Source of the DNA: a virus
Taxonomy: Duplodnaviria; Heunggongvirae; Uroviricota; Caudoviricetes
DNA length: 64,000 nucleotides
Direction: 5' to 3' (one strand)
IMG/VR virus record: IMGVR_UViG_3300011972_000167
Under the pieces are notes generated by a model. The model was not told the DNA's origin. It was given only the letters and a program-made list of their open reading frames with translations, and did not search any database. Both the position numbers and the translations under genes were made by a program. Below are positions 1,464 through 23,300 of this stretch, piece by piece (position 1 is the first letter of the stretch; each line of letters begins with the position of its first letter).

Positions 1464-2333
1464 ATGAAATTATTTAATAATTCTAAAAATAAGAATAGAG
1501 AAAACGGTATGTATAACACTAATATCAATAAAGGTAAGAGTTTTATGCCTATTGCTACTGTGTGTGCAGTTACTGTAGTTGCTATGGCTTGGGTAGGTTT
1601 TACAGGCAGAAAAGCTGAAGAAACTGTTAGTGTTGTAATGATAAAAGAGCCAATGTATAAAAATGAAGTCCTAACAGAAGATAATATGATGGAATACAAA
1701 ATGATTAGGGCTGAATATGATAAGTATGCCATTAAAAGAAGTGATGGTACTATATCTCAAAGATTGATACTCTGGAAAGACAAAGAAAAGGCTATAAATA
1801 CTTTCGCAGCTTATCCGTTACAAAAAGAAAGTTTATTAGAGGCTAGGAGTCTTATTGTAAGTAGGGTAGATAATACTGATAGCGTATTATATGCTTTTCC
1901 GAGTAAAGAGATAGTAGAATTGGAAGTAGGTGGAAGTGAGCTAAACTCCTTTAAGACTTTCTTACAGCCTGGAGATAGGGTCAATGTTGATGCTATATTC
2001 TCTGAGCGTATACAAAGGGAAAAAAGTGATGGATATGGTGGAACTGTTATGGAAGATGTGGAAGTAAGTAAGACAGAGCCTGTTTTCACCAGTATTATGA
2101 TAGCTGATATTATAAATGGACAAGGACAGTCAGTATTAGATATTTACCAAAAATATAATAATGCAACTGTTCAAGAGCAAGCAGCGCTTGATGCTTCAGA
2201 TGAGTTTAGACAGCAAACAGAGCCTAAGACATTGTTAGTTGCTTTAACTCCAGATGAAAAGGATAGATATTATCAGTTTTTATCTAAGAACAATAATAAG
2301 TTTAGAATCAGTTTACCTCAAAGAATTAAATAG
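1464..2333 (+). CDS. Hypothetical membrane-anchored protein (single N-terminal TM)
   Basis: 289-aa ORF with an RBS-like AAAGG upstream and an N-terminal hydrophobic segment IATVCAVTVVAMAWVGF. No recognisable catalytic motif. Confidence 0.4.
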   Translation: MKLFNNSKNKNRENGMYNTNINKGKSFMPIATVCAVTVVAMAWVGFTGRKAEETVSVVMIKEPMYKNEVLTEDNMMEYKMIRAEYDKYAIKRSDGTISQRLILWKDKEKAINTFAAYPLQKESLLEARSLIVSRVDNTDSVLYAFPSKEIVELEVGGSELNSFKTFLQPGDRVNVDAIFSERIQREKSDGYGGTVMEDVEVSKTEPVFTSIMIADIINGQGQSVLDIYQKYNNATVQEQAALDASDEFRQQTEPKTLLVALTPDEKDRYYQFLSKNNNKFRISLPQRIK

Positions 2334-2962
2334 TTTATAGGAGGACATATTTTATGGGAAAACTAACAGTTATATAAAATATTATTAAATATAGTTAAAT
2401 TTATATAATTGTACAAATAGAAAACCCCCTTCATTTGGAAACAAGTGAAGTGCTTTGTGTTAAAACTAGGAAACCATAAAGATTAGCTATACTACAACAT
2501 AATCCAAAAGATAAGTGTGAATGTTGCGAAAGCAGAAAAAAATAGCTAATATGACCTATGCTGAAATAAAAGCATACTGTATATAGATTTTAGAATAAAT
2601 AGTGACCACTATAATACAGTATGTGCTAAGGGTACATCAGTTGAAGCTAAAAATAATAACTGATTATTTTAATTGGTATTTAGTTGCGAAACTCTATTAA
2701 AAGAGTACGCCCAACGACTAGGAGATTGAGTCTCCCCCTGTAAATAAGGGATAACCGTGATAACGGAAAAGTAAAACTGCAAGCAATATAAGTGACAAGT
2801 TCTTTATAAAAATGGCAGAAGAAAAATACAACATCGTGAATTAAAATTCAAGGTGAACATATAGTCTACGCTTATACGAAAGTATAAGAGGTCTGCTAGT
2901 GATAGTAAGACTGCATTAGAAGTTGCGTTCTAATGTGAATAGGGAAAATCTACTTAAATATA

Positions 2963-2991
2963 TTGAAATTTATTTTAATATGTGTTATAAT
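2963..2991 (+). promoter_or_regulatory. sigma-A-like promoter for tnpA (copy 1)
   Basis: TTGAAA - 17 nt - TATAAT about 25 nt upstream of the RBS GAGGTG and the ATG at 3016. Confidence 0.45.
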
Positions 2992-3015
2992 AACCCTTGA
3001 AAGTGAGGTGAAATT

Positions 3016-3630
3016 ATGGCACTGATGTCAATAGGAAAATTTGCTAAAGAAATAGGTTTAAGTGTTCAGCATTTAAGAAAGCTTCATGAAGATAATATTT
3101 TAGCTCCTGCTGTAATAACTAAAGGTGGAACTAGGTATTATTCAGATGAACAACTTTCAGAATACTTAAATAAAGATAACAAACCACAACAATTACCTAT
3201 TATACTGTATGCAAGGGTTTCCACTCGAAGTCAAAAAGATGATTTAGATGGACAGGTGGAAAATCTAAAATTGTATGCAATTTCAAAAGGCTATTCTTTT
3301 GAAATAATAACTGATATAGGTAGTGGTATCGATTATACTAAACATGGATTAAAGCAGTTAATTCAGAAAATAAACAATAAAGAGATATCTAAAATAGTAG
3401 TTCTTTATAAAGATAGGCTTATTAGATTTGGTTTTGAATTGATTGAATATCTTTGTGAACTTAATAATGTAGGTATAGAAATAATTGATAACACAACTAT
3501 ATCAAAAGAAACTGAGCTAACAAATGATTTAATTCAAATTATTACTGTATTTGCTAACAGATTGTATGGATCTAGGTCTAAAAAGACATTAAGATTAATA
3601 CAAGAGGTGAAATCAAATGGTAATCATTAA
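3016..3630 (+). CDS. tnpA: IS607-family TnpA: MerR-like HTH fused to serine recombinase (resolvase) catalytic domain
   Basis: N-terminal HTH (SIGKFAKEIGLSVQHLRKL). Resolvase motifs YARVSTRSQ (catalytic Ser), and GSGIDYTKHGL / LIRFGFELIEYLC, shared with the paralog at 34.8 kb. Overlaps downstream tnpB. Confidence 0.75.
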   Translation: MALMSIGKFAKEIGLSVQHLRKLHEDNILAPAVITKGGTRYYSDEQLSEYLNKDNKPQQLPIILYARVSTRSQKDDLDGQVENLKLYAISKGYSFEIITDIGSGIDYTKHGLKQLIQKINNKEISKIVVLYKDRLIRFGFELIEYLCELNNVGIEIIDNTTISKETELTNDLIQIITVFANRLYGSRSKKTLRLIQEVKSNGNH

Positions 3631-4735
3631 AGGATATAAAATTAGATTATTACCTACTTTAGAACAAGAAATACTTATAAAAAAATCAATAGATGTTTCA
3701 AGGTTTGTTTATAACTGGTGTCTAAATAAACAGCTTAGTTCTGATAAATTTATTAGAGATAACGAATTAAGAAAAGAATTAACTAAATTAAAACGAACAG
3801 ACAGTTACTATTGGTTAAATGAAGTAGGTTGTAATGTAATAAAACAATCAGCAAAAGATTTATGTAATACTTACAAGAAATTTTTTAATAAACTATCTAA
3901 TAAACCAAGGTTTAAGAAAAAGGGTGTTCATAATTCATTTTATGTTAATTATGAAACTATGAAAAAGACTAAGCATGGTGTTAGGTGTGAAAAAATAGGT
4001 GATATTAAAACATCTGAAAGATTGCCTAAACTTATACAAGATAAACATTATATGAATCCTCATATAGTTTTTGATGGAAAATATTACTACATAACTTTTA
4101 GTATAGAAATAAATATAGAACTAAAAGAAAATACATCAAAAATTATAGGCATAGATTTAGGAATAAAATCATTTGCAGTATGCTCAGATGGTACTTTTTA
4201 TAAAAATATAAATAAAACGCATACAGTAAAAAAGTTAAATAAAAAATTAAGAAGATTACAACGATGTGTTAGTAAAAAATACCTTAAGAATAAGATGGGT
4301 AATAAATTTATAAAAACAACGAATATTATAAAACTTGAACATAAAATAAAACTTATACATAGAAGAATAAAAAATATTCGTGAAAATTATATTCATCAAA
4401 TAACATCTCACTTGGTGAAAACCAAACCAAGCAGAATAGTTATAGAAGATTTGAATATAAAAGGAATGTTAAAAAACAAGCATTTATCAAAAGCTATTGC
4501 TGAACAGTGCTTTTATAAGTTTATAAGTGTTTTAGGATATAAATGTGATTGGAATAATATAGAACTTTTAAAGGCAGATAGATTTTATCCCTCAAGTAAA
4601 AAATGTTCTTGTTGTGGAAATATTAAAAAAGATTTGAAACTTAAAGACAGAATTTACAGATGTGGTTTTTGTAGTTTAATAATAGATAGAGACTTTAATG
4701 CAAGTCTAAATTTAGCAAATTATAAATTAGCATAA
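3617..4735 (+). CDS. tnpB: TnpB (IS605/IS607 OrfB family RuvC-like RNA-guided nuclease)
   Basis: N-terminal KIRLLPTLEQ...RFVYNWCLN. RuvC-I IGIDLGIKSFAVCSDG. RuvC-II IVIEDLNIKGMLKN. C4 zinc finger CSCCG...CGFC. RuvC-III DRDFNASLNLAN. Confidence 0.85.
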   Translation: MVIIKGYKIRLLPTLEQEILIKKSIDVSRFVYNWCLNKQLSSDKFIRDNELRKELTKLKRTDSYYWLNEVGCNVIKQSAKDLCNTYKKFFNKLSNKPRFKKKGVHNSFYVNYETMKKTKHGVRCEKIGDIKTSERLPKLIQDKHYMNPHIVFDGKYYYITFSIEINIELKENTSKIIGIDLGIKSFAVCSDGTFYKNINKTHTVKKLNKKLRRLQRCVSKKYLKNKMGNKFIKTTNIIKLEHKIKLIHRRIKNIRENYIHQITSHLVKTKPSRIVIEDLNIKGMLKNKHLSKAIAEQCFYKFISVLGYKCDWNNIELLKADRFYPSSKKCSCCGNIKKDLKLKDRIYRCGFCSLIIDRDFNASLNLANYKLA

Positions 4736-4885
4736 AGTTAAAATTAAAAACAATGCTAATATGTACCGTTCGATACACGGGAATTTAAGCCTTTGGAGAG
4801 TTATATCAAACTAAAGTAGCTTTTTAGCAAAATAGGACTCTGTGAACAAGGAAGTTTTAATCGTGAGATGAAACATAGTAAAAAT
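4736..4885 (+). ncRNA. Putative TnpB omega-RNA / right-end structured region of IS607 copy 1
   Basis: Directly 3' of tnpB. Sequence blocks are conserved with the equivalent position of copy 2 (36592-36735) even though the two proteins are only about 50% identical. Ends with ATGAAACATA at 4868-4877. Confidence 0.35.
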
Positions 4886-5077
4886 TGACATTGATTTATA
4901 TTTAAGTAAATTTTTCGTATCGGTTTAGATGATATAATAGAGAAAGCCATAGTTACAGAAGATAGTGGTAATGATATCAGAGAAACTGCTAAGAAAGTTA
5001 CTAAAGGCATAGTAACTGAAATAAGCGGAAAAGATAATAATGTTATTAAGCCTGTTATAAATAATGTTATAGGTTTT

Positions 5078-5812
5078 ATGTCTGCTGGAGGTGGGGCAGG
5101 GGCAAGTACTATAGTAGCTAATACAGCTAAATTAATAAAGAAAAAGGGTTTATCTGTAGCTATAGTGGATTTGAATATAGTTTATCCGAGTCAGCATTTA
5201 TATTTTTCCATACCACAGGAGTTGGGTAGAAATGATATCTATAGTTTAATGTCAGGTAAGTCAGAACTAGGAGCAAGTTTAGTATACTCTAGTGATATAG
5301 CTTTGTTATTAGCAAATAATCGTGGAATAGTTGATTATATAAATGGAGATGATAAATATTTTTCAGCTAACCTTGAAAAAGCAATAGATAATTTAAGTTA
5401 TCGTTTTGATGTAGTTTTGATTGATTGTCCTTTGGATGTTTCTAATAGCTATGTAAATGCATCCTTATACAAGATAGATACATTATATTTAGTTATAGAT
5501 GATGGTGTTCAATCAATTATAAATGTACCAAAGATAAGAAATGCTTTTGACAGATTCGGTATAGGTTTTGGAAAGTGTAAATTTATAATGAACAAGAGAA
5601 CCAGTAATTTTTATAATGAGAGCAATCTAAATAAGGCTGGTATTAAATTAATTGAGATTATACCTTTTGATTTAGGTATAATAACATCAGGATTAAGATG
5701 TGAATTATATGTAGATAAGGGAATTGGTGTAGACAAGACTAGTAAAGAAGTTGAGAAAGCTTTTAATAGTTTATGTGAAAAAATACTAAGTATAGGGGGA
5801 TATAAGAAGTAA
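5078..5812 (+). CDS. CpaE/TadZ-like MinD/ParA-fold ATPase (ATPase domain only; N-terminus uncertain)
   Basis: Deviant P-loop VIGFMSAGGGAGASTIVANTA straddling the annotated ATG. MinD-like LIDCPLD (Walker B-like). Position is immediately 5' of cpaF as in tad loci. In-frame ORF is open back to 4910 without a canonical start codon. Confidence 0.5.
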   Translation: MSAGGGAGASTIVANTAKLIKKKGLSVAIVDLNIVYPSQHLYFSIPQELGRNDIYSLMSGKSELGASLVYSSDIALLLANNRGIVDYINGDDKYFSANLEKAIDNLSYRFDVVLIDCPLDVSNSYVNASLYKIDTLYLVIDDGVQSIINVPKIRNAFDRFGIGFGKCKFIMNKRTSNFYNESNLNKAGIKLIEIIPFDLGIITSGLRCELYVDKGIGVDKTSKEVEKAFNSLCEKILSIGGYKK

Positions 5813-7306
5813 ATGAAACCTAGTGATTATTTAGAGTTATCCTCTAAAAGAGATGTTAAGAAGAACTTTATATCTGATAATAATGACCAGACTAAAAATA
5901 TAGATTTTGTAGTTAGCGAGTGTAGAAAGTTCCTCAACCTTAACGCCTATGAATACTCCAATAAAACTGGAGATGAAAAAAAGGCAATGCTACAAAACCT
6001 TATAAATAAATTTATAGAGAACATAAATTATAAGGTAAGTGGTTTTGTAACATCAGACGGAAAGTTAAATGTCAATGAGTTATTAAATAAATTATCCCAA
6101 GACATTACGGATTATGGTATTTTATCCGCTGCTATGTATGATGATGAAATATCAGAGATACAAATAAACGGCAAAGAGATTAAGGTAGAGAGAAGAGGAA
6201 GAATAGAAGATTACAGAGATAGTTCTGATAGAATTTTATCTTTCAGCTCTACAGAGCAACAGGATGTAGTATTTAAGCGTTTATTAGGAGATACAAGACT
6301 ATCACCTAAGGATGCAATTTCAAATGCAAGAACAGTTGAGGGTTATCGTATAGCCGCTGTTCATCATAGTGTTATAGCTATGGATACCTTGGTTTCTTCA
6401 AATAACGGTTATAATTATGCTGTTATTCGTAAGTTTAGAAAGCAGAAAATGCCAATACAGCAATTAGTTAAGTATGAAACTATGAGTGATAACATGGCAA
6501 AGTTTCTTGGAACTATGATAGAGGGCGGTTCTACTTTCTTAACAGTTGGACAAACTGCTTCAGGTAAGACCACAACCAATCAATGTATTTTGGATACAGT
6601 TCCAAGTGATTTAAGAACTATACTTATACAGAATCCATCAGAGATTGACCTTGCAAGAAGAGATAGTACAGGCAGAGTTACAAACAATGTTGTCCATTTT
6701 GAGGCAAGGAGCATAGAAAATCCTACTGAAGCAGACCCTACAATGGAGAACTTTATGAACCAGTCCTTGAGATTTTCTCCAACCTTTATATCCTTTGGTG
6801 AGTTAAGATTGGATTCAGAGTTTACTAGGGCTATGGCAGCGGCATTGGCTGGACACTCTTTTAATTGCACCTTCCATGCTGGTAGTAGTTATGGTGCTAT
6901 GCTAAGATATGCTACAGCTTATGAAACTGGTTCTGGAAGTAATAGAGAAACAGTTATGATAAACTTAACAAGCTATGTTAATTTTATTATAGTTCAAGAT
7001 ATAATGAGAGATGGCACTCGTAAGATACTTCAAATAACTGAAGTTTTAGGAACTAAGAAAGATGATAGGGCTGAACCAGACTTAAATGATTTATACATTT
7101 TTGATGTAGGAGAAACTGATTATGATGAGAATGGCAAAATAATTAAGATAAATGGTACTCATAAGAGAGTAGGAAAGTTATCAGATGCTACTGTTCGTAA
7201 GTTTAAGTTACATGGAGTTAATCCCGATAAATATTCTTTCTTGTTAGGTGATGTTACAGATGACGAAGTAGAAACTTATACGGGAGACTTTGAGTTTGGG
7301 AGGTAG
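5813..7306 (+). CDS. cpaF: CpaF/TadA-type secretion ATPase (VirB11/GspE superfamily)
   Basis: Walker A GQTASGKTT. Asp/His-box region ILIQNPSEID and FISFGELRLDSE (equivalent to RIIVGEVR). Start overlaps the upstream stop (TAAATG). Confidence 0.75.
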   Translation: MKPSDYLELSSKRDVKKNFISDNNDQTKNIDFVVSECRKFLNLNAYEYSNKTGDEKKAMLQNLINKFIENINYKVSGFVTSDGKLNVNELLNKLSQDITDYGILSAAMYDDEISEIQINGKEIKVERRGRIEDYRDSSDRILSFSSTEQQDVVFKRLLGDTRLSPKDAISNARTVEGYRIAAVHHSVIAMDTLVSSNNGYNYAVIRKFRKQKMPIQQLVKYETMSDNMAKFLGTMIEGGSTFLTVGQTASGKTTTNQCILDTVPSDLRTILIQNPSEIDLARRDSTGRVTNNVVHFEARSIENPTEADPTMENFMNQSLRFSPTFISFGELRLDSEFTRAMAAALAGHSFNCTFHAGSSYGAMLRYATAYETGSGSNRETVMINLTSYVNFIIVQDIMRDGTRKILQITEVLGTKKDDRAEPDLNDLYIFDVGETDYDENGKIIKINGTHKRVGKLSDATVRKFKLHGVNPDKYSFLLGDVTDDEVETYTGDFEFGR

Positions 7307-7313
7307 ATAGTTT

Positions 7314-8309
7314 ATGGGTTCAATAAATAAAGCTTTAACTACTACTAGCGGTGTAACAGTAAGTGCATTATTGATAATAGCTCTTGCGGCTTTGTTTTAT
7401 ATATTTTACATATTAAAGTTTCGACCTGGCGATTGGTTAACTGGTTTAGCTAAACTTATATTAAAGATTACTGGTAAGAATATAAATAAAGCAGAAAGAG
7501 ACTATGAAAGAAACCTTGAGATTGGAAGATATAAGCAAAAATCAGTAAGAGTAAAAGTCTATAAGTTTTTGAATGATTTAACTATAGACTTAGACCTTAA
7601 GGCATCTGGATATACTCCTTATACTTTATTATTTTTTATAGTTGCTGTTAGTGTTGTTATAGCTTTTATTGTAAGTAATATTGTATTTAGAAATTTGTGG
7701 TTATTTATTTTTGCTTTTCCTATTGTTTTTGCTGCTATAGCTTGTTTCTTATACACTAGGGCTAATATAGCACATGATAGCCGTATAGATGATGTTATAG
7801 CTTCTGAAAATATTATAAGTAACAATGTTAGTAAGGGAGTTGTAGTTTCTATAAGAATGAATTTAGATAGTTTTCCTATCAAATTACAGCCTGTTTTCAG
7901 AGAGTTTGTAGATAGTGTTGAAACAAGAAATACTCATGTTAGGACAGCTTTGCTTGAATTAGGAAGTAACCTAGGTTCTGTATCTGATGACTTTATTCAA
8001 AAGTGTATAACATTTGAATTAGAAGAGGAGCATGGTTTAGTAGGTATATTTAATGATGTTGTAGAAGTTAATAGCATTAAGAGTGAGTTTAGGATTTATA
8101 TGAAGCGTAAGTTTGAAGAGGTTATGTTTGAGTTTATTATGGGATTAGGAATGATATTCTTTTTCCTTGGTGGTATTATAGCCTTATATCCTATGCTACA
8201 GAAATTTTATTTTGTTAATATTTTCGGTCAGATATTGTTATTACTAGATGGGCTTTTAATAGTCGCCGAGTTTGTTTATATAACATATCTAAGAGCACAA
8301 GAGTTATAG
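7314..8309 (+). CDS. tadB: TadB-like polytopic inner-membrane platform protein (T2SS-F-like)
   Basis: 331 aa with TM helices at the N-terminus, middle and C-terminus. Position directly after cpaF and translationally coupled. Confidence 0.5.
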   Translation: MGSINKALTTTSGVTVSALLIIALAALFYIFYILKFRPGDWLTGLAKLILKITGKNINKAERDYERNLEIGRYKQKSVRVKVYKFLNDLTIDLDLKASGYTPYTLLFFIVAVSVVIAFIVSNIVFRNLWLFIFAFPIVFAAIACFLYTRANIAHDSRIDDVIASENIISNNVSKGVVVSIRMNLDSFPIKLQPVFREFVDSVETRNTHVRTALLELGSNLGSVSDDFIQKCITFELEEEHGLVGIFNDVVEVNSIKSEFRIYMKRKFEEVMFEFIMGLGMIFFFLGGIIALYPMLQKFYFVNIFGQILLLLDGLLIVAEFVYITYLRAQEL

Positions 8310-8313
8310 GAGG

Positions 8314-9387
8314 GTGTCAATGGTTTCAAATAATTTAATTATATTAGCCTCTGCTGTAGGTAATTATGGTATAAACAATAGTAATGACATTAATATAGGT
8401 GATAGTTTCAAGTATGAGTACTTCAATCCTATCACATTAAAGTTATTAAACAATTACGGATTTATAAAAATTCTTGTAGCTATAATACTTATAGTATTAG
8501 CCTTTCTTATAATAAAAAATATGATGGGAATACGAAGTATATTTACATCAAAGGCTGTCAGGACAGAGATAGACAACTATAATAACCTTAGAGATAGGGA
8601 TAGTAGAATACTCCATGCTAACAAGTTTATTAGGGGAATAACGGGGTTTATAACAAAAAAAGGTTTTAGAGTAAATCCAGCTTATAAAGAGTACTTTCAG
8701 TATAATTTAGATAGAGCAAATGTCAGGATACCTGGCGGAAGTAGGATATATACTCCTGATGAATTTAACAGCTTAAAAGTGTTGTTTATTTGTTTAGTAA
8801 TACTTATAAGTTTATTAGTTTCTTGGTTTATATCTCCATTCTTTGGTTTTATATTAGCTGTTGTAGTTGGTTCTGCTATAAATATACTTCCAATGATGAT
8901 TATAAGACGAATAGTAGCAGCTAAGGACAGTGAGATAAGAGAAGATTTTCCAGACTTGTATTTGATGATACATTATGAAATAATGAGCGGTGCAAAAACT
9001 CCATTAGCTAAGGCTTTTACTTCTTACAGAAGAGTTACAGACTCCATAGAAATGTTAAAGTTTGTAGATACATCTATAAATATGTTTGAAACTTATGGAG
9101 ATGAAGAGGCTGCCACTAGAATAGCTAAGATTTATAGAGAAATACCTGAAGTTACTAGGTTAATGCGTCTTATAAATCAGTTACATACTGGTGGAGATGT
9201 TAAAAAAGAGTTAAACGGATTTAGGGAACAGATAATAAAGGATAAAAAGTACAGATTAGAGGTTAAAATGAATAAGTTAATTATTAAGGCTAAGATGTCA
9301 TTTTATCTAAGCTATATTGTTTTAGCCCAAGCAATTATAAGTGCTATGGCTTTATTTTTCCCAGATTTGAATTTCTTTAGGCTATAA
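8314..9387 (+). CDS. tadC: TadC-like polytopic inner-membrane platform protein
   Basis: 357 aa with three hydrophobic blocks and a cytoplasmic domain between them. Paralogous architecture to the preceding gene, as in tadB/tadC pairs. Confidence 0.5.
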   Translation: MSMVSNNLIILASAVGNYGINNSNDINIGDSFKYEYFNPITLKLLNNYGFIKILVAIILIVLAFLIIKNMMGIRSIFTSKAVRTEIDNYNNLRDRDSRILHANKFIRGITGFITKKGFRVNPAYKEYFQYNLDRANVRIPGGSRIYTPDEFNSLKVLFICLVILISLLVSWFISPFFGFILAVVVGSAINILPMMIIRRIVAAKDSEIREDFPDLYLMIHYEIMSGAKTPLAKAFTSYRRVTDSIEMLKFVDTSINMFETYGDEEAATRIAKIYREIPEVTRLMRLINQLHTGGDVKKELNGFREQIIKDKKYRLEVKMNKLIIKAKMSFYLSYIVLAQAIISAMALFFPDLNFFRL

Positions 9388-9487
9388 AGCTATAAAACTA
9401 GAATTTAAGAACTGGTTTAAGTTTATTAGGTATAAGAGTAAATAAGATAAAATACTCTTGATACACAGTATATAGGAGGAAAATAAA

Positions 9488-9748
9488 TTGAAAAAGATAT
9501 TCATAGGGCTTATTACAGCGGCTGTAATGGTAACAATAGGTTACATATCACTAAGAATTATATTGCCAAATACTTATATGTCAATGACTAATGCTATTGA
9601 AAAAGGCATTAAGAGCGGTACAGGTATTGCATTTGACCTTAACGGAGATGGTCAGATTGGTACTGGAGCAATGCCAAATACTGGTGCTTTAGATAATAAG
9701 GCTAAACAAGGTGATAATACTGTTACAGGATTAGATGGTTTACATTAA
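9488..9748 (+). CDS. Small pilin-like / secreted protein (TTG start)
   Basis: 86 aa with an N-terminal hydrophobic helix ITAAVMVTIGYISLRIILP. RBS AGGAGG at 8-nt spacing. Followed by a strong terminator. Sits where flp lies in tad loci, but lacks a canonical G/XXXXEY motif. Confidence 0.35.
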   Translation: MKKIFIGLITAAVMVTIGYISLRIILPNTYMSMTNAIEKGIKSGTGIAFDLNGDGQIGTGAMPNTGALDNKAKQGDNTVTGLDGLH

Positions 9749-9813
9749 TTTTTAAGATGTAACCTATTAAATCAACTTAGGCTACAACCGATTGTTGTTA
9801 GTCTATATAAACT

Positions 9814-9848
9814 TAGGCTACAATACACCATTGTAGCCTATTTTAATT
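9814..9848 (+). terminator. Rho-independent terminator after the pilin-like gene
   Basis: TAGGCTACAAT-ACACC-ATTGTAGCCTA (11-bp perfect stem) followed by TTTTAATT. A second imperfect hairpin lies just upstream (9788-9810). Confidence 0.6.
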
Positions 9849-9874
9849 CTATTTAATATAGGAGGTTACGGATT

Positions 9875-10417
9875 TTGAGTGATGCATTGAGATTTATATT
9901 TAAGACATTTATAAAAATACCATTTATAATAATGATTTCTTATTTCCTAGTTAATTTACTTTTGTTTTCGTTGTATTATTTCAAGTTTACTGGTATAAGT
10001 TACAGTGTAATGAATACTGCGATGGAAAATAATTATATACCAGAAAATGAGTATGGAACTATAAAAAAGACTATAGATGACATAAAGAATAGTAGCGTAC
10101 TTATAAAGGATGCTGACATTGTAACTGACACTCCAAATAAAAGAAAACAATATGGAAGTAAGGTAAAAGTAGGTGTTAGATATACTTATAGATGGTTAAC
10201 ACCTTTAATGCCTTGGGATACAGGTCAAACTCCCTCTGATATAAGAGGTGGAACTAGTATAATTGATGATAGTACTGCCAGTGAGGGAAATTTATCTTCT
10301 ATAACTGCTGAGGAGGCAAGGAGAAGAATAGATGCCTTATCAGATAGGTCATTAAATTCACCAATAGAAATAGTTTATGAGGTGCCAGGATTGCAATACT
10401 ATCCTGATATGAATTAG
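9875..10417 (+). CDS. TadE-like pseudopilin / membrane-anchored protein (TTG start)
   Basis: N-terminal TM IPFIIMISYFLVNLLLFSLYYF and position after the pilin gene. RBS GGAGG. Confidence 0.35.
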   Translation: MSDALRFIFKTFIKIPFIIMISYFLVNLLLFSLYYFKFTGISYSVMNTAMENNYIPENEYGTIKKTIDDIKNSSVLIKDADIVTDTPNKRKQYGSKVKVGVRYTYRWLTPLMPWDTGQTPSDIRGGTSIIDDSTASEGNLSSITAEEARRRIDALSDRSLNSPIEIVYEVPGLQYYPDMN

Positions 10418-10434
10418 TTTATGAGGATACTTTA

Positions 10435-11436
10435 ATGGGTAGTGGTATAAAAAGTATATTTAAGGTTCTTATATTTTTTACTTTATTTGTTACAATAGGG
10501 ATGATTATTATTGAGGTATATAATTTGACTATAGCTAGTGAGTTACTAAAGTCTACGGCTCATACTACTTTAGAGAGGTCTTGTGATTATTTTGCTCAAG
10601 AGAGTTATAAAAATGGTAGTGGAAATGCATATCAGTTAAGGGGATATAATAGTGGTTTAGACACTTCCTTAAATGGACAATTTTATTATGGTTCTGACTC
10701 TCAAGTTTATGATAAATTGTATACAAATAGTGATGAATTTAAAACTTATGTTAACAGATTTAAGGATAAATATAGGAAACTTAAGGTATTAGGTAAAGGT
10801 TTAGGTTTAACTCATGATATTTTATTTGATGGTGAAGATGCCATAGGTTCTTATTACAGACAAGGCTTGGTAACTCCATTAAATATAGGTATAGCATACT
10901 TAGATAGGGGTACTGTTGAAAAAATATTCAAATGGGAGTTGGTTGCTATATTATCTTCTGGACAAGAGGATATGATAATTACGAATCCTGCTGATGGTAG
11001 TAACCCTTATGTTTTATATAAAGGGTTTAGAATTTATTATAACTCTATAAAGTTAGAGGATCCTTCTTATAAAGTCTACGATTTATTTAATAGTGATGAT
11101 AAGAAAAAATTTGAAGAATTAACTAACATAGAAGTTGATGATTATATGCTAAGGGCTAGGATAAATGAATCAGATGAGCGTAGATATATAGTTGTAGCTA
11201 ATATGAATTATAAAGTTCGTGTTGGATATGAGGGAATAACTCCAATAAGAAGGCTTTTTCAGTGGGTAGTTAACACGGGAGATGATGAAAGATATGATAT
11301 AAACAATCCAAAGTGGAGTGGGGATACTACTTTAAGTAGGGTAGGAGCAAGAAATGAGGACTTTTTTAGGTCAGGTTTAAGATATGACTCTTCTGTGGGA
11401 ATAGGAAATAAGATTATATACTATATAGTCAGATAG
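10435..11436 (+). CDS. TadE/TadG-like membrane-anchored protein
   Basis: N-terminal TM VLIFFTLFVTIGMIIIEVYNL followed by a large extracytoplasmic domain. Confidence 0.3.
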   Translation: MGSGIKSIFKVLIFFTLFVTIGMIIIEVYNLTIASELLKSTAHTTLERSCDYFAQESYKNGSGNAYQLRGYNSGLDTSLNGQFYYGSDSQVYDKLYTNSDEFKTYVNRFKDKYRKLKVLGKGLGLTHDILFDGEDAIGSYYRQGLVTPLNIGIAYLDRGTVEKIFKWELVAILSSGQEDMIITNPADGSNPYVLYKGFRIYYNSIKLEDPSYKVYDLFNSDDKKKFEELTNIEVDDYMLRARINESDERRYIVVANMNYKVRVGYEGITPIRRLFQWVVNTGDDERYDINNPKWSGDTTLSRVGARNEDFFRSGLRYDSSVGIGNKIIYYIVR

Positions 11437-11444
11437 GAGATAGG

Positions 11445-12080
11445 ATGTTTAGTTTATTTGGGAAAAAGAAAACAAAAGAGCCTGTAGAAGAACTTCCAAT
11501 AGTAGATAAGGCATTATTAATTTTAACAGATAACCCAAAGGCTGGTATGGTAGATTACTTTAAGTCTTTTGATATAAAGATTAAAGGTTTATATAAAAGT
11601 TTAGATGATTTAAGAACTGAGTTAATTTTATATAGTTCAGATATACCTACCAGATTGGTTATTGTAGACAGTGGAGTTGATAAGTTTAACTCTACTGGAA
11701 ACGGTGATAATAATTTATATGATATATTAGAGTTGGCAAGTAATAAAGAGTTTGATATTACTGTATTGACTTCTAATAAAGGTTTGGTAAAAAGTGTAAA
11801 GAGTATACTTAAGAAATTAGGTAAAGCAGTTAATGATAAAGCTGATTACTCGGAGTATGATAGTATAAATTCCATAATAGAAAAGTTAAGTTCTTATAGA
11901 GAACACTATATAGAGAATGGAGCAACAGATATAGTTTTAGAGGAGCCATTAAAATTTAAGGGTCAAGAGGTAGATATAAAGTATCAAACTGGGATAAAAT
12001 ACAATGATTTTGAAACTTTAGCAGGTATATCAGATGATACATTAGGAAATGGTTTAACGGCTTTTAAGGTTAAGATTTAA
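11445..12080 (+). CDS. Hypothetical cytoplasmic protein, last gene of the tad-like operon
   Basis: 211-aa ORF, translationally close to the upstream gene. Followed by a hairpin and T-run. Confidence 0.4.
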   Translation: MFSLFGKKKTKEPVEELPIVDKALLILTDNPKAGMVDYFKSFDIKIKGLYKSLDDLRTELILYSSDIPTRLVIVDSGVDKFNSTGNGDNNLYDILELASNKEFDITVLTSNKGLVKSVKSILKKLGKAVNDKADYSEYDSINSIIEKLSSYREHYIENGATDIVLEEPLKFKGQEVDIKYQTGIKYNDFETLAGISDDTLGNGLTAFKVKI

Positions 12081-12088
12081 TAATGCAT

Positions 12089-12140
12089 AAGAGATAATTT
12101 TAATTTACTTATTTTAGTGGTTAAAGTTATCTCTTTTTTG
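12089..12140 (+). terminator. Putative terminator (long-loop hairpin + T-run)
   Basis: AAGAGATAA ... TTATCTCTT followed by TTTTTG. The loop is about 29 nt, so stability is modest. Confidence 0.35.
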
Positions 12141-12255
12141 TTGTTAAAGCCTGTAAGTAATTAAAGTATAATTAAATGTTTGAATTAGAACTTTTATTGT
12201 TATATAGATATGAAAGTAAGTTCAGATATAGCATAAAAGCTAAGAAAGAGAGTTT

Positions 12256-13497
12256 ATGAGTTTAATTCAGGCATTTTTGATTGATAATTTTAATTTTAAG
12301 GAGGTAACTAATATAATGTTACATGTTTGTACGGACCAAGGTGCTTCATGCACTAGATATTCAGCAAATAACAGTAAGGTGTATAAGAACCCTAATAACT
12401 TTATTACTGTGGAACCCGATGAGGATATCAGATATATACCACATAGCGATGAGTTTGTTGATAACATGGACTTAACGATTACTAAAGATGGAGATAGTGA
12501 TTTCTTTCCTAAAAGGATACTTGGAGGAACTTTAGCGGATAGGTATTCAAGTTCATCTGTTAAGCCAAGCATGCTTTCAAGCAAGAGCAAGCAACCAGTT
12601 AATTACTATAGCATTATTTCATCAGTTGTGGACTCTATATTGCTTAAAGAGGGTTCATTAAACGGAGAAAATCCTGTAGAGGTAGCCTGCTATATCTGTT
12701 TACCACCAGTGGAAATTACGGGTAATAATGAGAACGAAGATTATGTAAAGGCACAACTTAAAGGAAAGTATACGGTTAAGTTAAACAAGATGGATAAAGA
12801 GATTACTTTTAATATAAGAGAGGTAAGTATTTATCCAGAGAGTGTAATGGCTGTTGTTGCCTTTTTGTTTAATCAAGATGCTACTCAGCGTACAGAGATG
12901 GCTAAGTATAATAAAGGAAATGTACTAAGCTTTGATATAGGTGCAAGTACCTCTGACTTGGTTATAATTAACGATAGAAAGTTTGTGGAGCATTCTGGAT
13001 ATACCTGTAAGCTTGGTGGAAATATTATAGATGACTTGCTTCGTAATGAAATTCGCAGAAAGTTAGGCGTAGAGGTTTCTAACGATGACATAGCCGAGGC
13101 AGTAAGAACAGGTAGACTTGCTTATGGTAGCTCTTATAAAGATGTAAGTGAAGAGTTAAAGAAGTGCAAAAAGCAGTTTGCAAAAATGCTTTTTGAGAAG
13201 ATTCAAAACTATTTTGCTACCAATGGAATGGGATTGCAGTCTATCAAGGCTATATTTATGAGTGGTGGCGGTTCAATGCCATCAAGTTACATAGATGAGT
13301 CTGGTAAAGAGATAGTAACATCTCCGTCTGTTGGTGAGTACATAGATGAGGAGATTAAGAAAGTGTGTGACAGCATAGATATGGTACTATCACCATCTGT
13401 AAATCCTAGAGAGTGCAATATAGTTGGGTTAATACTTAGTATGAATGTTCAGAGAAAGCAATCTCAAATTCAGAACAATAAAAGTAAAAAAGAGTAA
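12256..13497 (+). CDS. Actin-like segregation ATPase (ParM/Alp family)
   Basis: Phosphate-1 MLHVCTDQGASCTRY (DxGxxxxR). Phosphate-2 LSFDIGASTSDLVII. Adenosine/phosphate-3 motif AIFMSGGGSMPS. 413 aa. Confidence 0.55.
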   Translation: MSLIQAFLIDNFNFKEVTNIMLHVCTDQGASCTRYSANNSKVYKNPNNFITVEPDEDIRYIPHSDEFVDNMDLTITKDGDSDFFPKRILGGTLADRYSSSSVKPSMLSSKSKQPVNYYSIISSVVDSILLKEGSLNGENPVEVACYICLPPVEITGNNENEDYVKAQLKGKYTVKLNKMDKEITFNIREVSIYPESVMAVVAFLFNQDATQRTEMAKYNKGNVLSFDIGASTSDLVIINDRKFVEHSGYTCKLGGNIIDDLLRNEIRRKLGVEVSNDDIAEAVRTGRLAYGSSYKDVSEELKKCKKQFAKMLFEKIQNYFATNGMGLQSIKAIFMSGGGSMPSSYIDESGKEIVTSPSVGEYIDEEIKKVCDSIDMVLSPSVNPRECNIVGLILSMNVQRKQSQIQNNKSKKE

Positions 13498-13540
13498 GAA
13501 AGGAGAGGACTCTGATAGTTTATGAGTCCTTAAAGATAAA

Positions 13541-15685
13541 ATGCTAAAGACAGCTATATTGGTATGTAAGCAGTCTAAAATAAGATTAAAGCATACAAAA
13601 TCTTATAGGGCTATTACAGAGAAAGAGTTTTTAAGGTTTATGGAATATGATACTTCCATAAACCTTGGTATCATAGAGATAGATAAAGATGCTACTGATG
13701 AAGTTATTAGTAGCATAGTAAAATTAGTAGATTATTGTGAGTCCAATTTGAATAAAAGAGTTATACTAATGTCATATAAGAGTGATGTTAGTATGGATTA
13801 TGTTGCTTATAGTGTAACCGAGTTACAAGAATTGATAGAGGCTGAAACAGGCTATGATGTAAGTACTTATATAAAAGAAAATTTATTCGATGAACAGCAA
13901 GAAGTTCAGGTATCTCAAGTAGAGAATGGCTTATCCTCTATTGCTGAATTTGAGATACCTGATGAAGAAGAGGAAGAAGAAGAGAACATAGAGGTCATCA
14001 AGATTATCAAAGATATAGAAGAGCGTAATATAGAGAATGAAAAGATTAAAGACCTTGAGATGATAATTGATGACCTTAAAGAAAAATTAGATAAATCAGT
14101 AAGCGTTAATGCTGAATTAGAGAGTACAAGAGAAAACTTATTAAAATCAAAGAATGAAGCTGATAATGAAATAGTTAGATTAACTTCTGAATTAGAGTCT
14201 AACAAGCATAAGATAGCCGAGTTAGAAAGTAATAACTATGTTGGAGAGATTGAAAGGCTTGTTAAAGAATTAGATAGTTATAAAATAAAAGTATCAGCTT
14301 TAGATGAAATAGAAGATAAACTCAGGGAAATAAATAGTTTATGTGATGAAAAAGATAAGATTATTAGAGACCTTGAGAATAGTATAAAAGACATTGAAAA
14401 GAAAGATAGAAGAAATGAGATAGTTTTAGAATTAAATTCAAAAAGGGCAGATACTATAAGGTTCATAGATAAAATTTATGTAGACCTTAAAAATACCATA
14501 AATGTTCTTAAGACTAAAGATAGTGAATTACATGAGGCTTTAAGAGAAGTTAAAGAATTAACTGACGACTGTAATTCTCTTAAAGAAAGTTTGAATAGTG
14601 CAATCAGCAGAGAGAAAGAGTATGCAGATAAAGAGTATAAATATAAAGAAAACATAAGTTTATTAGAGTCTAACTTAGATAAATTAGGAGAGGATTACAG
14701 TAACTCTAACAGACTTTTGGAAACCTATAAATCTAAGGTATTAAGTGCTGAAGCTTCTATTGCTCAAAGTGATGTGATAAAAACTAAGTTAAGCATTACT
14801 GAAAAAGAGTTAAAAGCTAGAATTGCTGAAATTGCAGATAAGGACATTGAGATTAAAAGATTAAACTCCAGTGTTAATACTAAAGAAGTAATAACTGTTG
14901 GAGTTGATAAGGTATTCAGTTCTTTTGAATATAAGGGTACTGCTAAGCTAATAAATGTATTTGGCGGAGGCAGTTATGGCATAACAAGCATAGCTTACTC
15001 AATAGCTAATAGGTTAAAAGGCAAGGTATTGTTTTTAGATTTTGATTTATTCAATCCAAAGTCTGATAAATACACTAAGAAAAATCCAATGGTAAGTGTT
15101 GCAGGTGTACCTAACAATCTATATAGGACTGGTGTAGGTGTATTATACAGTTGTGGCATAGATAAGTTTATAAGTGAATATGATAAGCTTGTTATAAAAG
15201 TTCTGAAAATAAAGGAACTTGAGTTAAGTTGGATAAGCGGATTGTATTCAATATTAAAGTTAGAAAATTTAGATTATACATCTGAATTTTTTAATTATAT
15301 AGGCAGTTTATATGATTATATAATAATAGACTCTGGTAAGGTAGGGTATTCCAATATAAATGACAGTTTAATTAAGAGTTTATGTGAGGTTAGCTATAAG
15401 AATTTAGTAGTATCAAGTAATGATACAGTAAGTATAAGGGGAATTGGTTTAGCATTAAATAAAGTTAAGCTAGCTAATGTAGATTGGATATTGAATTTAA
15501 GTAACAATTCTATTATAAGTGATAAAGCTAAAAAGAGTATCGGAGACAGTTCATATTATATATTACCTTTCAGTAATTCTATCTTTGGTACTGACAAATT
15601 AATAATAGATGATAATAACATAGATGGAAGATTATCAGCTTATCTTAGTAAGTTTGGATTGGAGGTAAATAAAGTTGGATTATAA
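13541..15685 (+). CDS. Receiver-like N-domain / ~300-aa coiled coil / C-terminal MinD/ParA-fold domain with lysine-less P-loop
   Basis: N-terminus AILVCKQ...IIEID...VILMSYKSD (beta-alpha pattern). Residues about 130-450 are heptad-rich E/K/L coiled coil. C-terminus LINVFGGGSYGITSIAYSIANRLKGKVLFLDFD resembles the MinD/CpaE Walker A region but lacks the Lys. Confidence 0.4.
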   Translation: MLKTAILVCKQSKIRLKHTKSYRAITEKEFLRFMEYDTSINLGIIEIDKDATDEVISSIVKLVDYCESNLNKRVILMSYKSDVSMDYVAYSVTELQELIEAETGYDVSTYIKENLFDEQQEVQVSQVENGLSSIAEFEIPDEEEEEEENIEVIKIIKDIEERNIENEKIKDLEMIIDDLKEKLDKSVSVNAELESTRENLLKSKNEADNEIVRLTSELESNKHKIAELESNNYVGEIERLVKELDSYKIKVSALDEIEDKLREINSLCDEKDKIIRDLENSIKDIEKKDRRNEIVLELNSKRADTIRFIDKIYVDLKNTINVLKTKDSELHEALREVKELTDDCNSLKESLNSAISREKEYADKEYKYKENISLLESNLDKLGEDYSNSNRLLETYKSKVLSAEASIAQSDVIKTKLSITEKELKARIAEIADKDIEIKRLNSSVNTKEVITVGVDKVFSSFEYKGTAKLINVFGGGSYGITSIAYSIANRLKGKVLFLDFDLFNPKSDKYTKKNPMVSVAGVPNNLYRTGVGVLYSCGIDKFISEYDKLVIKVLKIKELELSWISGLYSILKLENLDYTSEFFNYIGSLYDYIIIDSGKVGYSNINDSLIKSLCEVSYKNLVVSSNDTVSIRGIGLALNKVKLANVDWILNLSNNSIISDKAKKSIGDSSYYILPFSNSIFGTDKLIIDDNNIDGRLSAYLSKFGLEVNKVGL

Positions 15686-16442
15686 AGTAAAATTAGGGGC
15701 TACTTTATCCTTTAATTTAGGACTTGAGAGGGATATGGTTGAGCAAATAAATAAGTTAAAGGCTAGGCATAAGCTTGGAGAGTTTATAAGTAATTCTCTT
15801 AGGATAGTATTTGAAAACCCTGAATTATTAGAAAAACAAGGAGTAAGCCTTGCTGAGTATGGATTAACTGATAATAGAAAGAAATTAAATGATGCTATTC
15901 GTACTGAAATAATCAGAATGAATAATAAAATTCAAAAGACATACAAAATGGCTTATGAAATGTATAGCTTAGCAAAGTTTAATAAGCAATTAAATTTGTA
16001 TGATTGTTCAAGGAACATACTCGCCAGTCAGTTTATACTAGCTAAACAAATAGAAGATTTAAGAAAATTATTAGGGGTCAGTAGTATAGAACAACCTGTA
16101 AATTTACATAAAGTAGATACCAGCATAGATGATATCCTAGAGTACATATTATTAACTCATTCAGAAATAGTAGACGAGTTAAAAGAAAGTTTAACTGGTA
16201 GTAATGATTACTTGAAAAAGTTAAATGACCTAAAAGATTTAGCAGACAAGCATATTACAAAAGAAGTTAAAACTATTGAACCTCAGCCTGATATTGAAGC
16301 AGAAGATGATGAAGATAATGATACTTCTGATATGACTCAAAATGATATAGTTGAAGATGAAAAAGAAGATGAAGCTACTGATTTTGAAATAAGTGATGAT
16401 GCAAATATGAATGATTTAGCTGATTTAATTAATTTGTTTTAA
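15675..16442 (+). CDS. Hypothetical protein with highly acidic C-terminus (TTG start)
   Basis: 255-aa ORF with RBS GGAGG and a C-terminal D/E-rich tail (EAEDDEDNDTSDM...). Confidence 0.4.
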   Translation: MDYKVKLGATLSFNLGLERDMVEQINKLKARHKLGEFISNSLRIVFENPELLEKQGVSLAEYGLTDNRKKLNDAIRTEIIRMNNKIQKTYKMAYEMYSLAKFNKQLNLYDCSRNILASQFILAKQIEDLRKLLGVSSIEQPVNLHKVDTSIDDILEYILLTHSEIVDELKESLTGSNDYLKKLNDLKDLADKHITKEVKTIEPQPDIEAEDDEDNDTSDMTQNDIVEDEKEDEATDFEISDDANMNDLADLINLF

Positions 16443-17339: not shown

Positions 17340-17569
17340 GAGGTAGCATGAAAAAGTTTGCAGTTTATTTTATAAACAGTAATAAAAAGAGTTGTGTACT
17401 TTGCTTAGAGAATGATTATGATACTGCTCAAGTTAAGTACAAGATATATAACAGATTGGGAAATGTCAGGATACATGAATATGAGAGTAATACTTCCATA
17501 GATGAAGATTTGGAAAGTTTATTAGAATTAGAAGATAAGATAGACAGTTTAGGGGGTTTTGATGAGTAG
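17330..17569 (+). CDS. Small hypothetical protein
   Basis: 79 aa. Overlaps its upstream and downstream neighbours by about 10 nt (translational coupling). RBS GGAGG. Confidence 0.3.
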   Translation: MELGGSMKKFAVYFINSNKKSCVLCLENDYDTAQVKYKIYNRLGNVRIHEYESNTSIDEDLESLLELEDKIDSLGGFDE

Positions 17570-18437
17570 AGTACACTTGATAATAGATTTTATGCCTTTG
17601 TATTATAAATACTTTTTTAAGTTAAAATGTGGAAAGCTTCCTAAATTAAGTTATAATGATTTAGACACTACTTATTTATATTACATAACAAAAGAGATAG
17701 AGGATTCTTGTAAATTGGTTTCTAAAGATAGAGAAAACATTTTAATAAGTGTTTGTTTTGATTCTAAAGGCAGTAAAAGAAAAGAAATAGATACTAATTA
17801 TAAGAGTAATAGGGATACGAACCTTGAGAGTTATGATTTTGACATGATAGATAATTTTATATATCCTATATTTGATAAACTATATGACTCTTATAAATTG
17901 GATGGATATGAGGCAGATGATATAATAGTAGGTTTAGCTAAACATACAGATAAATTTGATAGGGTTTATGTAATGTCACCTGATAAAGATTTATCTCACT
18001 TGATAAATGATAAAGTCAGTTGCATTAAAAATTCTACAATGAACAGTAGTAAATATATAGTTGATATATATAGCTATGAGGATATATTGACTAGTAAACT
18101 TGGGGCAAGAGTACCTTATAATTCAATCCTATTATATCTTTGTACTGTAGGAGATAGCTCAGATAACATTAAAGGAGTTAGCGGTTTTGGTAAATCAGCC
18201 TTTAATAAATTAATACTAAGCAATAAAGAATTTGATTATTCTTCTTTATATACAAAAGATAACATACTTAAGTTTTTAGAAAATACATTTGATGGAGATA
18301 AGTTATTTCAAGCTAAGCATAGTTTAGATTTAGTGTATCCTTTTGATTTAGAAATAGAATTAAAGGATTCAAATTCAGATAGGAATGCTAGATTTAATGA
18401 ATTTATAGCTTATGGATTCAAAAGTTTAGTTTATTAG
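17559..18437 (+). CDS. 5'-3' exonuclease / flap endonuclease (Pol I N-terminal-like, FEN family)
   Basis: LIIDFMPLYYKYFF (like LLIDGNSL..R). GYEADDIIVGLAKH. DKDLSHLIND. H3TH GDSSDNIKGVSGFGKSAFNKL. Confidence 0.8.
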   Translation: MMSRVHLIIDFMPLYYKYFFKLKCGKLPKLSYNDLDTTYLYYITKEIEDSCKLVSKDRENILISVCFDSKGSKRKEIDTNYKSNRDTNLESYDFDMIDNFIYPIFDKLYDSYKLDGYEADDIIVGLAKHTDKFDRVYVMSPDKDLSHLINDKVSCIKNSTMNSSKYIVDIYSYEDILTSKLGARVPYNSILLYLCTVGDSSDNIKGVSGFGKSAFNKLILSNKEFDYSSLYTKDNILKFLENTFDGDKLFQAKHSLDLVYPFDLEIELKDSNSDRNARFNEFIAYGFKSLVY

Positions 18438-22905: not shown

Positions 22906-23300
22906 AACTTATATTCTGGATAAACTTGTATTCATCCAAGAGAATGGAGCAAGTCACTTTACAGAATTAAAATAAGTAATACATTTCAGTATTGATAAAG
23001 ACTTACATATAAGTGAAATTCTGAAATGATAGGATAACCGTATGTCCTTTAGTACAGTTTGTATTATAAAAATAATCTTGAATAACTTTGGATAAGTTTT
23101 CAAGTTACGGTGTGAGACCTAGTAGTGAGATGCTAAGATTGGCTTTATCTGAAAGGTTTATTAGGATAAACACATTAGAGGGAATGGAATTTTTGCATCT
23201 AGGGCAAGTTTTAGTTAAATGAGTACATGGGGAATTTTATCCTGTACCTCATGAAAAATTTATACAATTATATGATATAGTTAAATAAGGAGGGGATAAA

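Follow-up and report, generated by a model that had tools for sequence, protein, structure and literature searches.

A diverged Tad/Flp-like machine, probably encoded by a conserved gene block of giant low-GC extrachromosomal elements

The Tad/Flp pilus, known in its canonical form from Aggregatibacter actinomycetemcomitans and Caulobacter crescentus, forms together with the archaeal systems one clade of the type IV filament superfamily. Tad loci also occur on plasmids, among them pMU3262 of Thermoanaerobacterium saccharolyticum (NC_017998) and large plasmids of the B. mycoides/cereus group, where the order is cpaB, an AAA ATPase, CpaF, two membrane proteins of ~300 amino acids (aa), one or more small anchored proteins and a DUF4320/TadE-like protein. 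We show here that the identical gene order is found in IMG/VR virus record IMGVR_UViG_3300011972_000167, whose 64,000 nucleotides (nt), referred to below as the window, are part of the 278,931-bp metagenomic contig ENA ERZ27279303:k119_36362. An earlier note on this DNA had read positions 5078-12080 as a complete Tad/Flp-like pilus or secretion operon on a mobile replicon. The core of that proposal stands: the CpaF-like ATPase, the TadZ-position protein and the plasmid-like gene order point to a machine of the Tad/Flp type (type IVc-like) whose replicon is extrachromosomal or mobile, and motor, hub, platform and CpaB-like parts can all be recognised, while the labels "complete", "Flp" and "TadE" had to be abandoned. 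In our reading the locus probably encodes a highly diverged, monoderm-type Tad filament or pseudopilus machine (type IVc/type IV filament), and the module is the conserved core block of a family of giant low-GC extrachromosomal elements of ~200-600 kb.

The likeness to the canonical Tad pilus comprises a bifunctional CpaF-type motor, which is the closest solved relative of the window ATPase, two single-domain platform proteins that are TadB/TadC-like in their models, a CpaB/RcpC-like protein, a ParA-like hub of the TadZ/CpaE type whose Walker A motif is atypical, and a small candidate major subunit followed by larger candidate minor subunits. In contrast to the canonical system, the window lacks a secretin (RcpA/CpaC) and TadD, as expected in a monoderm host, no TadV/CpaA peptidase and no Flp G/XXXXEY motif were found in it, its TadZ-like protein is without the N-terminal receiver-like domain, and sequence identity stays under 30%, even between the ATPases. 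With pMU3262 there is homology for the ATPase, the TadZ-like protein, the TadC-like protein (via a family of ~310-aa proteins) and the CpaB-like protein; the plasmid, too, has platform proteins that are poorly recognised by T2SSF, and a second ParA-like protein with receiver and linker. However, the pMU3262 pilin carries a canonical Flp site, G/ALTLLEW, which the pilin-like proteins of the window do not have; the plasmid DUF4320 protein gives sub-threshold TadE/TadF matches, whereas the window proteins give none; the platform and subunit families of the window find no tblastn match among 72,556 plasmids; and the window replicon is an element of 200-600 kb with its own replication genes. Archaeal type IV filaments (the archaellum with FlaI/FlaJ; Aap and Ups pili) resemble the window system in the motor, FlaI being the best NCBIfam match (6e-26) and the second-best solved relative, yet the window is without a fused two-domain FlaJ, FlaH, archaellins and a class III signal peptide of the [KR][GA] type. 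Unlike the competence (Com) pseudopilus, with ComGA, its two-domain ComGB, ComGC-type pilins that carry a class III signal peptide, and ComC, the window platform consists of two single-domain proteins, and a class III signal peptide is again missing.

The gene block, its motor and its platform

The eight open reading frames (ORFs) previously placed in 5078-12080 are all confirmed, on the + strand like every other feature of the locus, with intergenic gaps of 0, 7, 4, 100, 126, 17 and 8 nt. The operon does not start at 5078, as had been supposed, but at 1464, with a CpaB/RcpC-like gene (1464..2333; 289 aa, one N-terminal transmembrane helix) that had been missed and that lies immediately upstream of the TadZ-like gene in all lineages. 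From this gene to a 255-aa gene well downstream, the block is collinear in seven diverged lineages at 23-86% identity, and because the same order recurs in all seven, the arrangement is, by sequence comparison, far beyond chance. What the sequences show is the identity of components at the level of domain or fold, their synteny and their conservation.

The 497-aa product of 5813..7306 is a secretion ATPase of the CpaF/TadA-FlaI clade. It contains a T2SSE domain (PF00437, E 1e-18, Pfam), and its best match in the PDB is Caulobacter CpaF (8rkd/9e24, E 6e-20, residues 89-454), followed by FlaI, archaeal GspE and VirB11, in that order. The NCBIfam ranking runs from FlaI (6e-26) through the TadA-family model TIGR03819 (3e-22) to VirB11 (6e-18), all below the curated cut-offs, with ComGA (1.4e-9) far below CpaF and FlaI. 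The Walker A sequence GQTASGKTT and the FGELR box reported earlier are indeed present and conserved: seven of the seven lineages keep Walker A GxT[AS]SGKTT, an Asp box NPSEID, Walker B FGE[LI]R and a His box. The ATPase of the pMU3262 Tad locus aligns at 28.6% identity (E 3e-36). The conservation of all four motifs across the lineages, together with the CpaF and FlaI relatives, argues that ORF 5813-7306 is an active motor of the CpaF/FlaI clade.

Directly downstream follow two membrane proteins, a polytopic one of 331 aa at the TadB position (7314..8309) and one of 357 aa at the TadC position (8314..9387). Neither has a significant match in Pfam, NCBIfam or PHROG, nor a tblastn match in 72,556 plasmids, even at E<=1. 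The assignments "TadB" and "TadC" had been made with the proviso that failure to detect a T2SSF domain would speak against them. At the level of hidden Markov models (HMMs) T2SSF detection does fail; this appears to be overturned by a predicted GspF-like fold of both proteins and by a transitive profile link of the TadC-like protein to pMU3262. Structure models of the two proteins (pLDDT 77 and 83), made after alignments of database homologues had been built, hit GspF-fold domains first, by two methods, and their top Foldseek matches are OutF, EpsF and PilC (probability 0.92-0.99, E values >0.1). In its model, each protein has a single GspF-fold domain between transmembrane helices, which is the architecture of TadB and TadC. 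An exhaustive profile search with the 357-aa family recovered a second tier of ~310-aa proteins, which align with the window family at an hhalign probability of 100% (E 8.5e-43) and with the TadC-position protein of pMU3262 at 97.2% (E 4e-11). In 45 distant TadC-like relatives, Pfam gave no T2SSF match. Since the platform proteins of pMU3262 are also sub-threshold for T2SSF (E 0.006-0.097), weak HMM detection characterises this whole monoderm branch.

The CpaB-like protein is matched by RcpC (PF16976) below threshold, with a best E value of 0.0086, and RcpC is the only family hit by four of the seven orthologues; against the annotated CpaB of pMU3262, hhalign gives 68% and E 4.7e-5 over 188 columns. 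In one distant relative, L006, Zn-ribbon-rich genes at 8367-9869 (500 aa, DUF4379) and 11004-12770 (588 aa) sit between the ATPase, TadB-like and TadC-like genes and look like selfish insertions.

The TadZ-position gene and its probable IStron

IS607-family IStrons such as CboIStron combine a transposon with an intron: they have TGGG as target and transposon-adjacent motif (TAM), TCGG as right end, and splice sites that coincide with the transposon boundaries (bioRxiv 10.1101/2023.11.20.567912). The ORF at 5078-5812 had been called CpaE/TadZ-like. It does encode a ParA/MinD-like protein at the TadZ position, but only its C-terminal 244 aa, after an internal Met: the orthologues in relatives have 294-307 aa, and the 52 codons upstream of 5078 in frame contain no start codon. 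Comparison with relative L002, whose uninterrupted gene starts with ATGGGTTTAAATGAT, reveals a 2,565-bp insertion after ATGGG (2354-2358). The window sequence at the insertion point reads ATGGG|AAAAC, and the gene resumes at 4924 with TTTAGATGAT. Joining exon 1 (2354..2358) to exon 2 (4924..5812) yields 894 nt in frame, and the resulting product of 297 aa, starting MGLDD..., aligns with the 305-aa and 294-aa orthologues.

The insertion (2359..4923) is missing from all related loci and has the parts of an IS607-family IStron, as in CboIStron and CseIStron. Its 5' part (about 2359-3015) is a structured RNA whose core resembles that of a group I intron. This is followed by a serine recombinase gene, tnpA (3016-3630; Pfam Resolvase/MerR), by tnpB (3617-4735; Pfam OrfB_IS605/Cas12f1-like_TNB) and by a 3' guide-RNA motif, RAGATH-18/omega-RNA (4790-4853; Rfam 69 bits). 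The TGGG on the left, which is part of exon 1, and the right end ...TCGG match the CboIStron pattern exactly, and splicing at these boundaries would restore the ORF. The 657-nt non-coding left end folds far better than shuffled sequences (z = -7.1), and within the 5' part Rfam Intron_gpI matches over the full model span with 19.4 bits (E 0.016) and a AUAUAGUC core. The window element differs from the described IStrons in its location, being part of a giant uncultivated replicon and not of a Clostridium genome, and in an intron match that is below the gathering score.

A simple truncation of the TadZ-like gene by an insertion sequence (IS) was also considered and rejected, since the remnant is in frame, TGGG and TCGG mark the boundaries, and the 5' RNA resembles an intron, all of which points to an IStron; the TadZ-like gene is probably restored at the RNA level. 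Self-splicing of the IStron RNA is predicted to restore the reading frame, and for this reason the module is probably still functional. In raw ORF calls, an intact gene may thus appear truncated because of an IStron. The window holds a second, diverged IS607-type unit at 34745-36715, which consists of a 223-aa ORF (presumably a recombinase), a 392-aa TnpB and its own RAGATH-18 RNA at 36642-36715, with 64-70% nucleotide similarity to the first unit.

The TadZ-like protein itself matches MipZ/AAA_31/CBP_BcsQ in Pfam, and hhalign aligns it with the AAA ATPase between cpaB and cpaF of pMU3262 at 97.2% (E 3e-11). It has no receiver-like domain and carries only a poorly conserved extension of ~60 aa. 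Its gene directly precedes the ATPase gene, with no gap. The Walker A motif, GGGAGAST, is degenerate, and both lysines are missing in all lineages, which fits a non-catalytic TadZ-like hub.

Candidate subunits and competing explanations

The genes downstream of the platform encode three N-terminally anchored proteins: one of 86 aa, the candidate major filament subunit (9488..9748), and two of 180 aa (9875..10417) and 333 aa (10435..11436), the candidate minor subunits. The start codon of the 86-aa gene is TTG, behind a strong Shine-Dalgarno sequence (GGAGG), and the single transmembrane helix of its product spans residues 4-22. Each of the three proteins has one N-terminal transmembrane helix, and they have in common only the first ~30 residues, which are in register and carry the motif [VIL]-[KR]-x-[IV]-F-[KR]-x-[LI]; in hhalign, the N-terminal 30 residues of the 180-aa protein match those of the 86-aa and 333-aa proteins at 72% and 87%. 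Such a segment, shared by one small and two larger proteins, is typical of a set of major and minor pilins. The 333-aa protein shows the N-terminal motif as [VI]K[ST][IV]FK, with an invariant Glu at the end of the transmembrane helix, and has 56 homologue clusters, all on these elements and none with a Pfam domain. In the 180-aa protein a C-terminal VPGL[QK]YY motif is conserved, and in the 86-aa protein LPN and a [FI]D[LFI]NGD[GN] loop are conserved in seven lineages. This loop (window 9632-9655, residues 49-56) resembles the Ca-binding sequence DxNGDG and gives weak EF-hand/dockerin matches in Pfam.

The family identities proposed for these proteins are not supported. The 86-aa protein has no PF04964 match and no G/XXXXEY motif, an alignment of seven orthologues showing neither a conserved Gly at -1 nor a Glu-Tyr pair, and the "TadE-like" 180-aa and 333-aa proteins have no PF07811 match; more generally, the TadE/TadF models (PF07811, PF16964) match none of the pilin-like proteins. 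No class III signal peptide was found in them. Their alignments have no significant match to the plasmid Flp and DUF4320 proteins, the comparison with the plasmid DUF4320/TadE-like protein giving an hhalign E of 0.005 and a probability of 7.5%.

Between the 86-aa and 180-aa genes lies the predicted terminator or attenuator, at 9814..9850: a hairpin of 11 pairs, of which four are GC, followed by TTTTAATTCT. A hairpin and T-run occupy the equivalent place in six of the seven lineages, with unrelated sequences. The Shine-Dalgarno sequence and the conserved hairpin fit an over-production of the putative major subunit. The transcription unit ends with a gene for a 211-aa soluble protein (11445..12080), which is syntenic in six of the seven lineages at 27-70% identity and has no family match in Pfam, NCBIfam or PHROG. 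The operon-closing terminator described earlier is also likely, from sequence and RNAfold, in the form of an AT-rich hairpin followed by T6 (12089..12141), and the RNAfold hairpin is found at the equivalent place in other lineages; a consensus terminator scan missed it because of its low GC content.

Taken by analogy with Tad systems, these parts suggest the following machine. The CpaF-like ATPase, as a hexamer, would dock on a heteromeric inner-membrane platform of the TadB-like and TadC-like proteins, with the TadZ-position ParA-like protein and its non-catalytic Walker A motif acting as a localisation or assembly hub and the membrane-anchored CpaB/RcpC-like protein extending outward. The machine would pull the abundant 86-aa anchored protein from the membrane and polymerise it, with the 180-aa and 333-aa proteins as minor or priming subunits, and the product may be a short filament or pseudopilus that crosses the cell wall. 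Owing to the conserved hairpin behind it, the 86-aa gene would yield a short transcript in excess, and hence an excess of the major subunit. The biological role might be surface adhesion or cell-to-cell contact to the benefit of the element; adhesion and transfer of the element are both conceivable.

Several observations weigh against this reading. The platform and pilin-like proteins go unrecognised by all Pfam, NCBIfam and PHROG models, and profiles of the TadB-like, TadC-like and CpaB-like families found nothing meaningful among PDB sequences. The platform models are of moderate confidence only, with Foldseek E values >0.1; paralogy between the TadB-like and TadC-like proteins went undetected by hhalign, and the match of the TadB-like protein with the plasmid protein is weak, at E 4e-4 and a probability of 34%. 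In the pilin-like proteins a G/XXXXE[YF] site is absent, position -1 holds no conserved Gly/Ala, and Glu is missing at +5. Furthermore, a Pfam search of the scanned window ORFs and a scan for GxGD motifs in the window and the related loci found no A24 prepilin peptidase in the 64-kb window or in the ~20-kb flanks of relatives. Calling the operon complete therefore went too far, as the window shows no prepilin peptidase and no secretin either, although a secretin is not expected because the host is monoderm. Finally, both the filament and the splicing are predictions, and the Intron_gpI match is below the Rfam gathering score (50 bits).

The same machine could instead be a mating or DNA-transfer apparatus, either a Tad-like pilus associated with conjugation or a DNA conduit of the competence kind that joins cells or passes DNA between them, an explanation that differs from ours in biological role only and that we consider unlikely. 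It can draw on the ATPase matches to the "TadA family conjugal transfer-associated ATPase" model (TIGR03819, 3e-22) and to VirB11, although all NCBIfam scores are far below the curated cut-offs. On pMU3262, FtsK/SpoIIIE and replication-relaxation genes precede the homologous locus by a few kb, and the locus has the type MPF_T. The module belongs to the conserved core of a mobile replicon and is not an accessory island; a giant NlpC/P60 protein is encoded shortly before the start of the window, and a 3D-domain wall hydrolase inside it. However, as the earlier note had said of VirB4 and VirD4, the scanned window ORFs contain no VirB4, VirD4 or FtsK-type domain, nor did the 64-kb window and the flanks that were read yield a VirB4, VirD4/FtsK, relaxase or replication-relaxation domain. 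A bolder proposal, to which we give rather little credence, is that the locus represents an unrecognised branch of type IV filaments, with subunits that are recognised by their short N-terminal motif in place of a class III signal peptide and that assemble with no prepilin peptidase, the filament serving as the contact or transfer organelle of a widespread family of giant (200-600 kb) extrachromosomal elements in gut and oral Firmicutes.

Two further explanations would do away with the filament. A GspF/T2SSE membrane complex, similar to SpoIIIA or to a secretion channel, in which the anchored proteins are fixed subunits or cargo, appears improbable. SpoIIIAB has a GspF fold, but with ~170 aa it is about half the size of the window platform proteins, which have ~330-360 aa and a TadB/C-like topology; besides SpoIIIAA and SpoIIIAB, the components AC-AH of the channel have no counterpart in the window, and ring proteins of the SpoIIIAG/AH type were not detected there. 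Gene order and four components match Tad loci and not spoIIIA, and sets of filament subunits typically show what is seen here, one N-terminal segment common to an abundant small protein and two larger proteins. Least of all do we expect the block to be mainly a partition or positioning system of the giant replicon, with the secretion-ATPase genes as an unrelated neighbour. The two ParA/MinD-like proteins, together with a ParM-like actin that matches a PHROG "partition protein" (5e-23), would suit such a system, but the first ParA-like gene abuts the ATPase gene and has the AAA protein of a Tad locus as its best profile match, both ParA-like domains lack the Walker lysines that partition ATPases need, and the actin-like gene forms part of a separate unit beyond a terminator.

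If the Tad-type filament machine is what the locus encodes, such a nanomachine would be a conserved core of a large family of giant elements, comprising hundreds of contigs, some of them classed as viral in IMG/VR, and for these elements a surface or transfer function could be put to the test. New to the type IV filament superfamily would be platform and subunit families that current HMMs do not recognise, and the subunits might bypass processing by a prepilin peptidase. In practice, the standard detection of Tad and type IV pili with T2SSF, Flp and TadE HMMs misses these systems.

Neighbouring genes and the element

Behind the terminator lie three further genes on the + strand (12256-16442). 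In lineages whose locus reaches this far they keep synteny with the Tad-like block, and they could belong to a partition system or to the machine. The first encodes an actin-like ParM/PilM-like protein (12256-13497; Pfam MreB-like_C/StbA_N), whose L006 orthologue also matches PilM_2. The second, at 13541-15685, encodes a protein of 714 aa with a receiver-like N-terminus, a long coiled coil and a C-terminal degenerate ParA-like domain without Walker lysines; this domain is a paralogue of the TadZ-like protein (hhalign 82%, E 1e-5), and hhalign found no significant match between the N-terminus and the 211-aa protein. The third, at 15675-16442, encodes the 255-aa protein. The Tad locus of pMU3262 (L004) opens with a 494-aa protein (5539-7023) that has a receiver, a repetitive linker and a ParA-like domain. 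Its architecture is analogous to that of the 714-aa protein, with no significant homology (E 0.005, probability 7%).

The TadB-like family counts at least 384 clusters, on contigs of up to ~590 kb, and twelve loci were found in IMG/VR, on contigs of 85-295 kb. A GTDB-wide scan of 185,579 species genomes recovered one 19-kb contig only, in a Lachnospiraceae metagenome-assembled genome, which is a weak hint at the host. By megablast, the operon has no nucleotide-level relative among 72,556 plasmids and 50,697 phage records, and a search of the literature for jumbo phages with Tad or CpaF brought up nothing pertinent. No virion genes were found in the parts of the element that were read, and the classification of the element as viral is that of IMG/VR. 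In size, GC content, IS load and the placing of genes on one strand, the element resembles the "Inocle" giant plasmid-like elements of oral Streptococcus (PMC12340149), a paper that does not mention a Tad or pilus system; this resemblance in overall features is a lead.

The window has a GC content of ~29% and a GC skew that is positive throughout; nearly all of its genes are on the + strand, and it contains no tRNA genes. The element has its own PolA (25772-26980), 5'-3' exonuclease (17559-18437) and clamp loader (49015-50421). The window further encodes SPFH, 3D-domain, YdjM and GNAT proteins, an IS110-like transposase, and giant ORFan membrane proteins of 1273, 880 and 1673 aa without relatives in the PDB or in phages, the 1273-aa and 1673-aa proteins having no tblastn match in phages. 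An Rfam IS605-orfB-I RNA (119.5 bits) at 22915-23114 directly follows a 448-aa ORF (21559-22905), which has no Pfam or PHROG match and may be a diverged TnpB-like gene.

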